Of a DNA stretch of 64,000 nucleotides, positions 9,233-57,340 are shown in pieces. The DNA is from Escherichia coli. GTDB taxonomy: Bacteria; Pseudomonadota; Gammaproteobacteria; Enterobacterales; Enterobacteriaceae. Both the position numbers and the translations under genes were made by a program. The stretch is from NCBI RefSeq assembly GCF_044324785.1, contig NZ_CP172127.1, one strand, 5' to 3'. Each line of letters begins with the position of its first letter. Within the stretch, counting starts at the first letter, position 1. The notes beneath the pieces were generated by a model. The model was given only the letters and a program-made list of their open reading frames with translations. It did no database searches and was not told the DNA's origin.

Positions 9233-10032
9233 AAGATTTCATCACCGAAGCATGGCTAAGAGCGAACCATACGCTCAGCGAAGGCGCAGAGATCCATCTC
9301 CCTGCGGACAGTCGCCTGACGCCCTCTGCCCGGGAGTTGCTGGAAAGCCGCCATCTGCGCATCAAGTTTATTGACGAGCAGGGCCGCCTGTTTGTTGACG
9401 ATGAACAGCAGCAGCCGCAGCCCGTTCATGGGCTGACCAGTAGCGATGAACATCCGCAGGCGTGCTGCGAACTGTGCCGCCAGCCGGTGGCGAAAAAGCC
9501 GGATACGCTGACTCACCTGTCGGCGGAAAAAATGGTCGCCAAAAGCGATCCGCGCCTGGGTTTTCGCGCTGTTCTCGACAGCACCATTGCGCTGGCAGTG
9601 TGGCTGCAAATTGAACTGGCAGAACCGTGGCAGCCATGGCTGGCGGACATCCGCTCGCGTCTTGGCAACATTATGCGCGCCGATGCGCTGGGGGAACCGC
9701 TGGCCTGCCAGGCGATTGTCGGGCTTTCTGACGAAGATCTGCATCGGCTTTCTCACCAGCCGCTGCGCTATCTTGGTCACGATCATCTGGTGCCGGAAGC
9801 CAGCCACGGGCGCGATGCGGCGTTGCTCAATCTGCTACGCACCAAAGTGCGGGAAACCGAAACCGTGGCGGCGCAGGTCTTTATCACCCGCAGCTTTGAA
9901 GTATTACGCCCGGACATCTTGCAGGCGCTGAACCGCCTTTCCAGCACGGTCTACGTGATGATGATCCTGAGCGTAGCGAAACAACCGCTAACGGTGAAGC
10001 AGATCCAACAACGACTGGGGGAAACGCAATGA
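9229..10032 (+). CDS. eutT: ethanolamine utilisation corrinoid adenosyltransferase
   Basis: 267-aa ORF, ATGA overlap with eutQ; Cys-rich motif [11 protein letters not shown]; operon position. Confidence 0.85.
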
Positions 10033-11045
10033 TTATTGAACGTTGTCGTGAACTGGCGTTGCGAGCGCCCGCCAGAGTGGTATTTCCGGATGCGTTAGAT
10101 CAACGTGTGCTGAAAGCTGCGCAATATTTACATCAACAAGGTCTGGCAACGCCCATTCTGGTCGCCAATCCGTTTGAACTTCGTCAGTTTGCGCTCAGTC
10201 ACGGCGTGGCGATGGACGGGCTACAGGTGATAGATCCGCATGGCAACCTCGCAATGCGGGAAGAATTTGCTCTCCGCTGGCTGGCCCGTGCGGGCGAAAA
10301 AACGCCGCCGGATGCGCTGGAAAAACTCACCGATCCGCTGATGTTCGCTGCCGCAATGGTCAGCGCCGGGACAGCGGATGTTTGCATTGCGGGCAATCTC
10401 TCTTCCACGGCGAATGTGCTGCGTGCCGGATTACGCATTATTGGCTTACAGCCAGGCTGTAAAACGCTCTCCTCCATTTTCCTGATGCTGCCGCAGTACA
10501 GCGGCCCGGCGTTGGGCTTTGCCGATTGCAGCGTGGTGCCACAGCCGACGGCGGCGCAGCTGGCGGATATCGCGCTTGCCAGCGCCGAAACCTGGCGCGC
10601 CATCACCGGAGAAGAGCCGCGCGTGGCGATGTTGTCGTTTTCCAGTAACGGCAGCGCCCGTCACCCCTGCGTTGCCAACGTCCAGCAGGCGACAGAAATC
10701 GTCCGTGAGCGCGCGCCGCAGTTGGTAGTCGATGGCGAGTTGCAGTTTGACGCCGCCTTCGTGCCGGAAGTGGCGGCGCAAAAAGCGCCTGCCAGCCCAC
10801 TACAAGGCAAAGCCAATGTGATGGTTTTTCCGTCGCTGGAAGCCGGAAATATTGGCTACAAAATCGCACAACGACTCGGCGGATATCGTGCCGTCGGGCC
10901 ATTGATACAAGGACTTGCCGCGCCGATGCACGATCTCTCTCGTGGTTGTAGCGTGCAGGAAATTATCGAGCTGGCGCTGGTGGCAGCTGTGCCGCGTCAG
11001 ACAGAAGTAAACCGTGAAAGCAGTTTACAAACACTGGTTGAATGA
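10029..11045 (+). CDS. eutD: phosphotransacetylase of the eut pathway
   Basis: 338 aa, PTA family; ATGA overlap with eutT. Confidence 0.85.
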
Positions 11046-11083
11046 ACGGTCCCGTTCTGGACCCTGATAAAGAGGAAAGCACA

Positions 11084-11377
11084 ATGGAAGCATTAGGAAT
11101 GATCGAAACCCGGGGCCTGGTTGCACTGATTGAGGCTTCTGACGCGATGGTGAAAGCTGCGCGCGTCAAGCTGGTTGGTGTTAAGCAGATTGGCGGCGGC
11201 CTGTGTACTGCCATGGTTCGTGGTGATGTTGCAGCCTGTAAAGCCGCGACCGACGCAGGTGCTGCAGCGGCACAGCGTATCGGCGAGCTGGTATCTGTAC
11301 ACGTTATCCCGCGTCCGCACGGCGACCTGGAAGAAGTCTTCCCGATCGGCCTCAAAGGCGATAGCAGCAACCTGTAA
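11084..11377 (+). CDS. eutM: BMC-H hexameric microcompartment shell protein
   Basis: 97 aa from internal Met: [40 protein letters not shown]... (canonical BMC domain). Confidence 0.9.
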
Positions 11378-11483
11378 TCACCCTGTGTGACGTCGATTCG
11401 GGCGTCACGCTCTCTCCTTTTTCATTTTACCTTCCGCGGAGGGTAGGGGGAGCTTTTACCTGAAATACGCCACGGAGGCGGGT

Positions 11484-11771
11484 ATGAAACTGGCAGTCGT
11501 CACTGGACAAATTGTTTGTACCGTACGCCATCACGGACTGGCGCATGACAAATTGCTGATGGTGGAAATGATTGATCCACAAGGTAATCCTGACGGGCAA
11601 TGCGCCGTCGCCATCGACAATATTGGCGCGGGAACCGGGGAGTGGGTGTTGCTGGTGAGTGGCAGTTCCGCCCGCCAGGCGCATAAAAGCGAAACGTCAC
11701 CGGTCGATCTGTGCGTGATTGGCATCGTCGATGAGGTGGTGTCTGGCGGTCAGGTAATTTTCCACAAATAA
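11484..11771 (+). CDS. eutN: BMC vertex (pentamer-type) shell protein
   Basis: 95 aa MKLAVVTGQIVCTVRHHGLAHDKLLMVEMIDPQGNP...; EutN/CcmL family. Confidence 0.9.
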   Translation: MKLAVVTGQIVCTVRHHGLAHDKLLMVEMIDPQGNPDGQCAVAIDNIGAGTGEWVLLVSGSSARQAHKSETSPVDLCVIGIVDEVVSGGQVIFHK

Positions 11772-11782
11772 GGCAGAACATC

Positions 11783-13186
11783 ATGAATCAACAGGATATT
11801 GAACAGGTGGTGAAAGCGGTACTGCTGAAAATGCAAAGCAGTGACACGCCGCCCGCCGCCGTTCATGAGATGGGCGTTTTCGCGTCCCTGGATGACGCCG
11901 TTGCGGCAGCCAAAATTGCCCAGCAAGGGTTAAAAAGCGTGGCAATGCGCCAGTTAGCCATTGCTGCCATTCGTGAGGCAGGCGAAAAACACGCCAGAGA
12001 TTTAGCGGAACTTGCCGTCAGTGAAACCGGCATGGGCCGCGTCGAAGATAAATTTGCCAAAAACGTCGCTCAGGCGCGCGGCACACCAGGCGTTGAGTGC
12101 CTCTCTCCGCAAGTGCTGACAGGCGACAACGGCCTGACTTTAATTGAAAACGCGCCCTGGGGCGTGGTGGCTTCGGTGACGCCTTCCACTAACCCGGCGG
12201 CAACCGTAATTAACAACGCCATCAGCCTGATTGCCGCGGGCAACAGCGTCATTTTTGCCCCGCATCCGGCGGCGAAAAAAGTCTCCCAGCGGGCGATTAC
12301 GCTGCTCAACCAGGCGATTGTTGCCGCAGGCGGGCCGGAAAACTTACTGGTTACTGTGGCCAATCCGGATATCGAAACCGCACAACGCTTGTTCAAGTTT
12401 CCGGGTATTGGCCTTTTGGTGGTGACCGGCGGCGAAGCGGTAGTAGAAGCGGCGCGTAAACACACCAATAAACGTCTGATTGCCGCAGGTGCCGGTAACC
12501 CGCCGGTAGTGGTGGATGAAACCGCCGACCTCGCCCGTGCCGCTCAGTCCATCGTTAAAGGTGCTTCTTTCGATAACAACATCATTTGTGCCGACGAAAA
12601 GGTACTGATTGTTGTTGATAGCGTAGCCGATGAACTGATGCGTCTGATGGAAGGCCAGCACGCGGTGAAACTGACCGCAGAGCAGGCGCAGCAGCTACAA
12701 CCGGTGTTGCTGAAAAATATCGACGAGCGCGGAAAAGGCACCGTCAGCCGTGACTGGGTTGGTCGCGATGCGGCGAAAATCGCGGCGGCAATCGGCCTTA
12801 AAGTTCCGGAACAAACGCGACTGCTGTTTGTGGAAACCACTGCAGAACATCCGTTTGCCGTGACTGAACTGATGATGCCGGTGCTGCCCGTCGTGCGCGT
12901 CGCCAACGTGGCGGATGCCATTGCGCTGGCGGTGAAACTGGAAGGCGGTTGCCACCACACGGCGGCAATGCACTCGCGCAATATCGAGAACATGAACCAG
13001 ATGGCGAATGCCATTGATACCAGCATTTTCGTTAAGAACGGACCGTGCATTGCCGGGCTGGGGCTGGGCGGGGAAGGCTGGACCACCATGACCATCACCA
13101 CGCCAACCGGTGAAGGGGTAACCAGCGCGCGGACGTTTGTCCGTCTGCGTCGCTGTGTATTAGTCGATGCGTTTCGCATTGTTTAA
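11783..13186 (+). CDS. eutE: CoA-acylating acetaldehyde dehydrogenase
   Basis: 467-aa aldehyde dehydrogenase family ORF at the expected operon position. Confidence 0.9.
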   Translation: MNQQDIEQVVKAVLLKMQSSDTPPAAVHEMGVFASLDDAVAAAKIAQQGLKSVAMRQLAIAAIREAGEKHARDLAELAVSETGMGRVEDKFAKNVAQARGTPGVECLSPQVLTGDNGLTLIENAPWGVVASVTPSTNPAATVINNAISLIAAGNSVIFAPHPAAKKVSQRAITLLNQAIVAAGGPENLLVTVANPDIETAQRLFKFPGIGLLVVTGGEAVVEAARKHTNKRLIAAGAGNPPVVVDETADLARAAQSIVKGASFDNNIICADEKVLIVVDSVADELMRLMEGQHAVKLTAEQAQQLQPVLLKNIDERGKGTVSRDWVGRDAAKIAAAIGLKVPEQTRLLFVETTAEHPFAVTELMMPVLPVVRVANVADAIALAVKLEGGCHHTAAMHSRNIENMNQMANAIDTSIFVKNGPCIAGLGLGGEGWTTMTITTPTGEGVTSARTFVRLRRCVLVDAFRIV

Positions 13187-15210: not shown

Positions 15211-15216
15211 AAGTGT

Positions 15217-15328
15217 ACGGACAGTCCCCTCGCCCCTTTGGGGAGAGGGTTAGGGTGAGGGGAACAGAGTCGCGCCGGTGCAAACAATTACCCTCACCCC
15301 GGCCCCTCGGCTTCCAGAGTGAGGGAAA
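15217..15328. repeat. GC-rich imperfect-palindromic intergenic repeat (boxC-like), copy 2, with an extended inverted arm
   Basis: acggacagtcccctcgcccctttggggagagggttagggtgaggggaaca, then ccctcaccccggcccctcgg...gagtgaggg; sits in the 169-bp eutG-eutH gap inside the operon. Confidence 0.5.
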
Positions 15329-15379
15329 AACCCACTTTCAGCATTGGCAATAAATAACAACTAACAGGGAGTAAAGGTG

Positions 15380-35549: not shown

Positions 35550-35585
35550 GTAGGCCTGATAAGACGCGCAAGCGTCGCATCAGGC
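35550..35585. repeat. REP (repetitive extragenic palindromic) element
   Basis: gtaggcctgataagacgcgcaagcgtcgcatcaggc between cysA and cysM. Confidence 0.65.
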
Positions 35586-37847: not shown

Positions 37848-37875
37848 AAAAATGGCGCCGATGGGCGCCATTTTT
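37846..37875. terminator. bidirectional rho-independent terminator between pdxK and crr
   Basis: aaaaaatggcgcc gatg ggcgccattttt: 8-bp GC stem flanked by an A-tract and a T-tract. Confidence 0.65.
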
Positions 37876-40802: not shown

Positions 40803-40830
40803 AAAAAAGCACCTGAAAAGGTGCTTTTTT
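40803..40830. terminator. bidirectional rho-independent terminator downstream of cysK
   Basis: aaaaaagcacc tgaaaa ggtgctttttt immediately after the cysK stop. Confidence 0.65.
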
Positions 40831-48681: not shown

Positions 48682-48708
48682 AAAAAAGCGCCTTTAGGGC
48701 GCTTTTTT
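48682..48708 (-). terminator. rho-independent terminator of the tRNA operon (palindromic)
   Basis: aaaaaagcgcc ttta gggcgctttttt directly downstream of tRNA-Lys. Confidence 0.65.
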
Positions 48709-50802: not shown

Positions 50803-50832
50803 ACGGCAGGAGAGATACCCCTGCCGTTTTTT
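50803..50832. terminator. bidirectional rho-independent terminator between gltX and yfeD
   Basis: acggcagg agagatacc cctgccgt followed by ttttt. Confidence 0.6.
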
Positions 50833-54403: not shown

Positions 54404-54436
54404 AAAAAAGCCGGGGAATGATCCCCGGCTTTTTTA
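54404..54436. terminator. bidirectional rho-independent terminator between pdeA and nupC
   Basis: aaaaaagccgggga atgatc cccggctttttt. Confidence 0.7.
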
Positions 54437-57250: not shown

Positions 57251-57285
57251 GGCGGATGCGGCGTAAAACGCCTTATCCGCCCTAC
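57251..57285. repeat. REP element (first of a BIME pair)
   Basis: ggcggatgcggcgtaaaacgccttatccgccctac. Confidence 0.65.
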
Positions 57286-57303
57286 GCGTTAAAGAGACGG
57301 TTT

Positions 57304-57340
57304 GTAGGCCCGATAAGACGCACTAGCGTCGCATCAGGCC
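57304..57340. repeat. REP element (second, inverted orientation)
   Basis: gtaggcccgataagacgcactagcgtcgcatcaggcc. Confidence 0.65.

Follow-up and report, generated by a model that had tools for sequence, protein, structure and literature searches.

At the rplL-rpoB junction, an operon-internal attenuator in the form of a partial intrinsic terminator occupies a long gap with a stem-loop between genes that are needed at different levels, and mRNA steps down downstream of it. In a microcompartment shell the hexamer (EutM) must greatly outnumber the pentamer (EutN), and we know of no established account of how one operon delivers the EutM:EutN ratio in the eut system. Differential decay through protective structures is well documented at the malE-malF REP and common among E. 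coli operons (PMC5927463). In the malE-malF case (Newbury et al. 1987, as described in PMC5927463), a stable stem-loop sits 3' of a highly needed cistron and before cistrons of lower need. The protective 3' structures reported by Dar and Sorek 2018 (PMC5927463) are conserved hairpins at the boundary between abundant and less abundant segments of one operon, mostly inside the downstream open reading frame, and their proposed role is in mRNA stoichiometry. Hairpins also follow abundant structural-subunit genes at pufA-pufL of Rhodobacter capsulatus, where segmental mRNA stability sets a high ratio of structural to low-copy components (cited in PMC5927463). The REP/BIME and Box C repeats of Enterobacteriaceae are GC-rich palindromes in intercistronic gaps.

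The eutM-eutN spacer of E. coli has features of each of these systems. It shares with rplL-rpoB the long gap with a stem-loop and the downstream mRNA step-down, but it has no canonical U-tract, its terminator discriminant is negative and its U-run is not conserved among homologues. The likeness to malE-malF extends to genuine REP/BIMEs, which stand between eutM and eutN at the homologous site in Salmonella, Klebsiella and several Citrobacter. The E. coli element itself differs, being non-REP and single-copy and containing another hairpin, which covaries, and a single-stranded motif that is conserved, and stabilisation by it would be by analogy. As in the Dar and Sorek examples, a conserved hairpin marks a boundary in mRNA abundance and may serve mRNA stoichiometry; the eut hairpin is intergenic, however, and eut lay outside their expressed set. 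With pufA-pufL the likeness is one of logic only, since organism, sequence and complex are unrelated. The two hairpins of the spacer, here P1 and P2, match neither the REP/BIME nor the Box C family. Most likely, the element is an intercistronic stabiliser or attenuator hairpin that contributes to ordinary operon fine-tuning. The general mechanism is already well known, and the gain is a specific testable example, not a new principle. Our literature search found no paper that mentions this spacer.

The window, a stretch of 64,000 nucleotides, contains the E. coli eut operon, and the 901 bases around the junction are found at ≥95% identity in 5408 of 5426 complete E. coli genomes. From the list of open reading frames and the RefSeq annotation of an identical E. 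coli locus, eutD (pta, 10029-11045) is followed on the plus strand by eutM (11084-11377; the major BMC-H shell protein, 97 aa plus stop), the 106-nt spacer (11378-11483) and eutN (11484-11771; the BMC-P vertex protein, 95 aa plus stop), with eutE starting at 11783. An in-frame upstream ATG would give a 111-aa eutM reading frame (11042-11377) that overlaps the end of eutD; the RefSeq start is at 11084 (97 aa). The earlier note on this DNA had called the spacer unusually long, and this holds: other eut junctions overlap or measure 9-45 nt. The length is not unique, as the eutG-eutH spacer has 169 nt. The eutM-eutN spacer is present in 5407 of the 5426 genomes (≥95% identity), at a single place in each, and the region is 98-100% identical among about 5400 E. 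coli genomes, a polymorphism too low for a selection test on the spacer within the species. K-12 differs from the window by a single C-to-U change, which makes a C-G pair at the P2 apex U.G. No Rfam covariance model matched positions 10500-12500 at E ≤ 10 on either strand. We found no sigma-70 promoter inside the spacer on either strand, and a minus-strand TAAAAT is not conserved in Citrobacter.

Folded as RNA, the whole spacer reaches -42.2 kcal/mol (z -2.7) and consists, in order, of P1, P2, a single-stranded UUUUACCUGAAAU stretch and the eutN Shine-Dalgarno (SD) sequence. P1 (11385-11410, plus strand, from folding and alignments) begins 7 nt past the eutM stop codon and pairs 11385-11394 with 11401-11410 around a 6-nt loop (11395-11400). 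The earlier note had described a GC stem of 6-7 bp at 11387-11408, which is real at the RNA level and larger than that, with 10 bp including two G.U pairs. Folding confirmed a stable structure, as P1 alone reaches -17.4 kcal/mol (z -4.28), a value equalled by none of 200 shuffles. The minus strand reaches just -8.4 kcal/mol because the two G.U pairs turn into A.C mismatches, and the predicted stability on the sense strand only points to P1 acting as RNA made from that strand. The core GTGACG-N10-CGTCAC (11387-11408) occurs once in the 64-kb window, where shuffles give an expectation of 0. Across genera the core stem GUGACGYC/GRCGUCAC is invariant, while the loop varies from 4 to about 20 nt and the flanks diverge. 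The stem is 100% paired in 19 sequences, with one pair varying between U.G, C-G and U-A, and Yokenella alone has a compensatory A-U in place of G-C at another pair. The earlier note had made its proposal depend on conservation of the stem in related eut operons, and there the stem is kept. We considered P1 as a DNA operator and rejected this on the variable loop between the arms (4 to about 20 nt) and the strand-asymmetric stability. Scanned against metagenomes, the P1 pattern gave 120 chance palindromes; none of them adjoined eutM or eutN, and three had an incidental ACCTGAA nearby.

P2 is a composite hairpin at 11409-11453 (plus strand), for which the MFE and centroid folds and RNAalifold give the same structure. 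It folds at -17.9 kcal/mol and comprises an outer helix, (G)CUCUCUCC/GGGGGAG(C), an inner helix, UACCUUC/GAGGGUA (11428-11445, loop CGCG), and between them a U-rich bulge at 11419-11427; the internal bulge measures 9-11 nt. The T-rich run at 11411-11428 had been taken in the earlier note for a free U-tail after the stem. It is a mixed C/U tract (UCUCUCCUUUUUCAUUUU) within which CUCUCUCC pairs with GGGGGAG, and it is predicted, with support from covariation, to form the 5' strand and bulge of P2 instead. A degenerate Box C origin for P2 found no support, as the core pattern matches at 1851 and 15244 and not in the spacer. The UUUUACCUGAAAU motif that follows (11454-11466, plus strand, from alignments) is conserved: wherever a genus has P2, UACCUGAA is unaltered or differs at a single position. 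The motif could serve as an entry point for an endonuclease or as a weak U-tail of P2. A search for a long-range partner of UACCUGAA gave none, its complement TTCAGGTA occurring only at distant, unrelated positions. Next to it, folding and alignment give a small hairpin, CGCC-ACGGA-GGCG (11468-11480, plus strand), at the eutN ribosome-binding site (RBS), which presents the SD GGAGG (11474-11478; 5-nt spacing, AUG start).

For a covariance model we used 12 spacers from Escherichia, Citrobacter and K. spallanzanii. The model finds one copy in the window and recovers, at full length, the spacers of Buttiauxella (E 7e-8 to 1e-4) and Entomohabitans (E 3e-5). In the MAFFT alignment of the 12 sequences, 98.2% of cells are paired, compared with 50-66% in slid controls, and P2 has three pairs with compensatory changes and eight double-change cells, a count reached by none of 500 shuffles. 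An alignment of 19 sequences has 96.3% of cells paired (slid controls 45-65%) and double changes at nine pairs in 25 cells, again reached by none of 500 shuffles; this alignment leans towards the structure because it was fitted to the covariance model. Most of the compensatory changes sit in P2, where the model-fitted alignment adds eight further pairs. RNAalifold run on the 19 sequences independently returns both P1 and P2.

We compared the junction across genera through a genome scan for EutN, which gave 48 loci, 42 of them (about 14 genera) with eutM directly upstream. The eutM-eutN gap is 52-211 nt long in 42 of 42 loci, the shortest, of 52 nt, keeping P1; the neighbouring gaps are mostly 36-41 nt (eutD-eutM) and 10-15 nt (eutN-eutE). 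The MFE z-score (median -3.0) falls below -2 in 39 of the 40 distinct spacers, and the first structured domain starts 0-9 nt past the eutM stop. Spacers with P1, which we refer to as class A, are found in Escherichia, the C. freundii complex, three more Citrobacter isolates, K. spallanzanii, Buttiauxella, Entomohabitans and Yokenella. Except in Yokenella, which has P1 alone, they also have a P2-type hairpin and then (U)UACCUGAA. Class B spacers contain one to three REP palindromes (…GCCGGATAAG…CTTATCCGGCCTAC…). These REP/BIME spacers occur in Salmonella, K. pneumoniae and most of the K. oxytoca group, and also in C. koseri, C. amalonaticus, C. sedlakii, Pseudocitrobacter and Pluralibacter; the covariance model gives them weak matches, confined to the end near the RBS. 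In Intestinirhabdus, Pseudomonas and two Rhodocyclales the slot is filled by other GC-rich hairpins. At least three unrelated sequence families thus fill it (the P1/P2 module, REP/BIME and other GC-rich hairpins), and judged from these comparisons the conserved feature of the slot is structure, not sequence. Citrobacter and Klebsiella each hold both spacer classes, and the content has therefore been exchanged more than once.

Several observations accompany this comparison. The E. coli spacer has no REP motif (consensus …GCCGGATG…CTTATCCGGCCTAC), and REP-type motifs occur elsewhere in the window, with CTTATCAGGCCTAC at 35550 and an inverted pair at 57272/57304 (57272-57317); REP is therefore present in the genome, yet absent from its eutM-eutN spacer. 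The C-terminal tail of EutM is hypervariable and tracks spacer class, ending in …KGDSSNL, …GDSNDM or …GSDKTID in class A and mostly in …KGDSNI in class B. K. spallanzanii combines an Escherichia-like EutM tail with a P1/P2 spacer and differs in this from its relatives in the K. oxytoca group, which suggests that recombination took place at the junction. Three short contigs (269-466 nt) labelled Gemelliphila, Prolixibacteraceae and Caballeronia (loci L018, L032 and L043) encode EutN 87-100% identical to enterobacterial EutN, and that of L018 bears a REP motif. They are probably contaminating enterobacterial reads in those assemblies.

Transcript levels across the operon were taken from an RNA-seq table for E. 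coli LF82, which gives RPKM for every eut gene in minimal medium and in bile salts (PMC6379400). In this single dataset, which has low expression and unstated strandedness and in which eutN is a short gene, the values (minimal medium, bile salts) are 20 and 76 for eutS, 39 and 166 for eutP, 24 and 192 for eutQ, 13 and 83 for eutT, 108 and 357 for eutD, 55 and 177 for eutM, 5 and 62 for eutN, 14 and 149 for eutE, 13 and 147 for eutJ, 35 and 168 for eutG, and 106 and 514 for eutH (PMC6379400). The LF82 study took the long form of eutM (gene size 335 bp), which has a slight effect on the eutM value. The earlier note had proposed comparing eutM and eutN transcripts, and in this one dataset eutN is the lower, by 11-fold in minimal medium and 2.9-fold in bile salts (PMC6379400). 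By these RPKM, eutM belongs to the upstream, more abundant mRNA segment, and the less abundant downstream segment begins with eutN. The eutD-eutM block tops both eutT upstream and eutN, eutE and eutJ downstream (PMC6379400), the signature of a 3'-protected fragment or of an internal transcript that stops within the spacer. RPKM rebounds farther downstream (eutH 514, eutB 358), and other elements therefore also shape the profile.

Other expression sources bear on the junction less directly. In MG1655 Term-seq data (LB and M63, where the eut operon is uninduced), there is no sense-strand 3' end at the spacer. The same data hold a low-count antisense 3' end within the 3' end of eutM, at about 11307 of the window on the minus strand (K-12 2572217, plus strand), 16 nt beyond an inverted repeat at 11323-11348. 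At least the final 60-70 nt of eutM must thus be covered by an antisense RNA whose start may lie in the spacer or beyond it, in eutN, and which could confound unstranded RNA-seq. The supplements of Dar and Sorek and of TERMITe held no eut entries. A 2025 study of Eut biogenesis in Salmonella found that EutN shapes the shell and did not address the junction (PMC12487888); it also relates that, in earlier transcriptomics, shell genes were expressed above cargo genes (PMC12487888).

Our tentative reading, which we regard as plausible without counting on it, is that the spacer RNA is a 3'-exonuclease barrier, or decay boundary, on the polycistronic eut mRNA, perhaps with weak attenuation. An endonuclease would cleave the mRNA at P2's U-rich bulge, at the UUUUACCUGAAAU stretch or farther downstream, and the 3'-to-5' exonucleases PNPase and RNase II would stall at P1. 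Because of this stalling, the eutS-to-eutM segment, and especially eutD-eutM, would outlive the eutN-to-eutR segment, and the ratio of eutM to eutN mRNA would go up. In Salmonella, most Klebsiella and several Citrobacter, REP/BIME palindromes would take the role of P1. We infer both the barrier and its effect on EutM:EutN stoichiometry from a stable, conserved stem-loop lying at the 3' boundary of an abundant segment, the abundance being that of the single RNA-seq dataset. A decay barrier appears to fit the comparative data better than transcriptional attenuation because structure and not sequence is conserved, REP elements interchange with P1/P2, the position after the stop codon is fixed and the RPKM profile agrees. 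Some features fit less well. The invariance of the P1 sequence exceeds what a purely structural barrier would need and speaks against a plain barrier, and the P2-UACCUGAA unit is left unexplained by a simple one. Since REP and IS911 also go into any gap with room for them, tolerance and not selection could account for part of the pattern.

A structured boundary at the exact eutM-eutN junction, assembled from unrelated sequences, points to a post-transcriptional contribution, and the hairpin and REP versions amount to a natural swap comparison. Synthetic eutSMNLK expression usually drops or rewrites this spacer, which may alter shell stoichiometry.

The earlier note had proposed a hairpin with a U-tract that acts as a partial terminator and lowers the vertex protein EutN relative to EutM. 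A leaky intrinsic terminator after P1 (tail UCUCUCCUUUUU) or after P2 (tail UUUUACC) would reduce transcription of eutN and of everything downstream, and the RPKM step-down is equally compatible with it; we consider it unlikely, yet worth keeping in view. We scored all hairpin-plus-T-tail candidates on both strands of the window (n=997), with a tail score that decays with distance from the stem and a discriminant d (d'Aubenton-Carafa 1990) that serves as a relative guide only. P1 (tail 2.01, d -20.1) ranks 58 and P2 (tail 3.24, d -19.7) ranks 56 of the 997, within the top 6% or so, but their d is negative, whereas the clear terminators of the window (for example 54410/54429, 37853/37870 and 50804/50826) take the top ranks with tail scores of 3.8-5.3 and d > 0. 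The calibration set consists of compact GC-rich palindromes with T-runs on both strands (54410-54429, 37853-37870, 50804-50826, 48688-48702 and 40809-40824), which look like bidirectional intrinsic terminators.

P1, with 10 bp, is within the range of GC-rich stem-loops of intrinsic terminators (about 5-14 bp). Its tail, UCUCUCCU, has four U in the first 8 nt, and neither this tail nor that of P2 (UUUUACCU) is a canonical U-run; the P1 tail is, moreover, predicted to be base-paired inside P2. A lenient consensus scan flags P1, but its match rate is near chance, with 13 sites in 7 kb where 8.3 +/- 2.9 are expected. Among relatives, UUUU directly follows P2 in Escherichia, Citrobacter and K. spallanzanii, and UUUCUUUAA follows P1 in B. 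noackiae. The U-run is not maintained after P2 in Buttiauxella (CUGUACC) and Entomohabitans (GUGUUACC) and after P1 in Yokenella, where CCCAGAU leaves no pyrimidine tract. Because the scores are negative, the U-run is not conserved among relatives and the REP-type spacers have no U-tail, a canonical intrinsic terminator does not appear to be what is conserved. The partial-terminator claim therefore stands in part: a conserved boundary structure is present, but on the terminator scores and U-run conservation it is probably not a hairpin-plus-U-tract terminator, and weak termination or pausing at P1 or P2 would be a possible minor contribution. The claim of lower EutN expression agrees with the mRNA drop in the one RNA-seq table. 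Attenuation at the spacer would hit all 11 downstream genes, however, including eutBC and eutL/K, and a logic that concerns eutN only is therefore flawed.

The spacer could instead be non-adaptive, an ancestral gap that is tolerated and time and again colonised by REP and IS elements, with P1 and P2 as relics that have no role in expression. REP/BIMEs in the slot in many taxa and IS911 in strain 90-1 are in keeping with this, as is the hypervariable junction formed by the EutM tail and the spacer, with both classes held by Citrobacter and by Klebsiella. We find the idea improbable, for the gap is lost in 0 of 42 loci and even at its minimum of 52 nt retains P1, the arms of P1 are invariant amid scrambled loop and flanks, and P2 covaries. 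The strand-asymmetric stability and the 98-100% identity across some 5400 E. coli genomes also argue against it. In strain 90-1 (L172, 1618-2896), IS911 lies within the UUUU immediately 3' of P2 and parts eutM, P1 and P2 from the eutN RBS, which makes this strain a natural polar mutant of the junction.

Another explanation is a translational insulator, in which the structured spacer blocks ribosomes from sliding or re-initiating after the heavily translated eutM and EutN synthesis is set independently. The structure at 0-9 nt past the stop in all taxa would suit such a role, and at all the other shell and enzyme junctions the genes lie close enough to be coupled. P1 and P2 are predicted to be self-contained and tend to leave the eutN RBS free: opening its positions -13 to +3 costs no more energy than in shuffled-upstream controls in 14 of the 16 taxa, with a fraction of 0.5-1.0 of the shuffles needing as much as the real sequence or more. 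We nevertheless regard an insulator as quite improbable, since the strong eutN SD (GGAGG, 5-nt spacing, AUG) does not suggest low independent initiation and the mRNA step-down would be left unexplained. Blocking the 13 nt that follow the eutM stop, which mimics a ribosome there, had no consistent effect on the opening of the eutN RBS. From these results we reject RBS sequestration, or structural coupling to eutM termination, as a conserved function.

It is very doubtful that the spacer is a regulated cis-element in which a factor that binds P1, P2 or UACCUGAA tunes eutN and the downstream genes. CsrA is one candidate factor: a review states that it modulates eut expression in Salmonella (PMC9397018), and GGA is found in the P2 apex (GCGGAGG) and in the SD hairpin loop (ACGGAGG), 36 nt apart, the SD being displayed as ACGGA in that small loop. 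The invariance of P1 beyond structural need and the unexplained conservation of UACCUGAA would also suit a binding site. However, GGA is expected in any G-rich SD region, the GGA of the P2 apex is not conserved in Buttiauxella, and CsrA binding here is putative. The module is absent from REP-type spacers, and the variable length of the P1 loop argues against a dimeric DNA-binding site. A stronger version, for us a long shot, would make P1-P2-UACCUGAA a dedicated, uncatalogued cis-regulatory RNA whose P1 stem or GGA loops are bound by a specific factor, for which CsrA or a microcompartment protein that has a nucleic-acid-binding domain, such as EutK, would be candidates. If so, synthesis of the vertex protein and of the downstream products would be actively tuned and not passively set.

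Least probable of all is that P1, through its nearness to the stop codon, holds up the ribosome at termination, with tmRNA-dependent loss of EutM output, as Liang, Rudd and Deutscher (2015) reportedly described for the upstream product where a REP lies within about 15 nt of a stop; the position of P1 (7 nt past the eutM stop) and of the structures in all taxa (0-9 nt) would allow it, but for the major shell protein, with an mRNA that is relatively abundant, there is no evident reason for damping.

Two further repeat-bearing gaps of the window were noted. The eutG-eutH spacer (15211-15379, 169 nt), the operon's sole longer gap, contains a Box C-like repeat, TCCCCTCGCCCCTTTGGGGAGAGGGTTAGGGTGAGGGGAA, at 15225-15264 and further inverted repeats, GGGTGAGGGGAA/TTACCCTCACCC, at 15253-15299. 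LF82 RPKM leaps across this spacer, from 35 and 168 for eutG to 106 and 514 for eutH; the spacer may act as another structured boundary or harbour an internal promoter. Another Box C-like copy, GTCCCCTCGCCCCTCTGGGGAGAGGGTTAGGGTGAGGGGAAC, is located at 1830-1873 in the gap downstream of ypfG, and its core, AGAGGGTTAGGGTGAG, is common to the copy at 15244.
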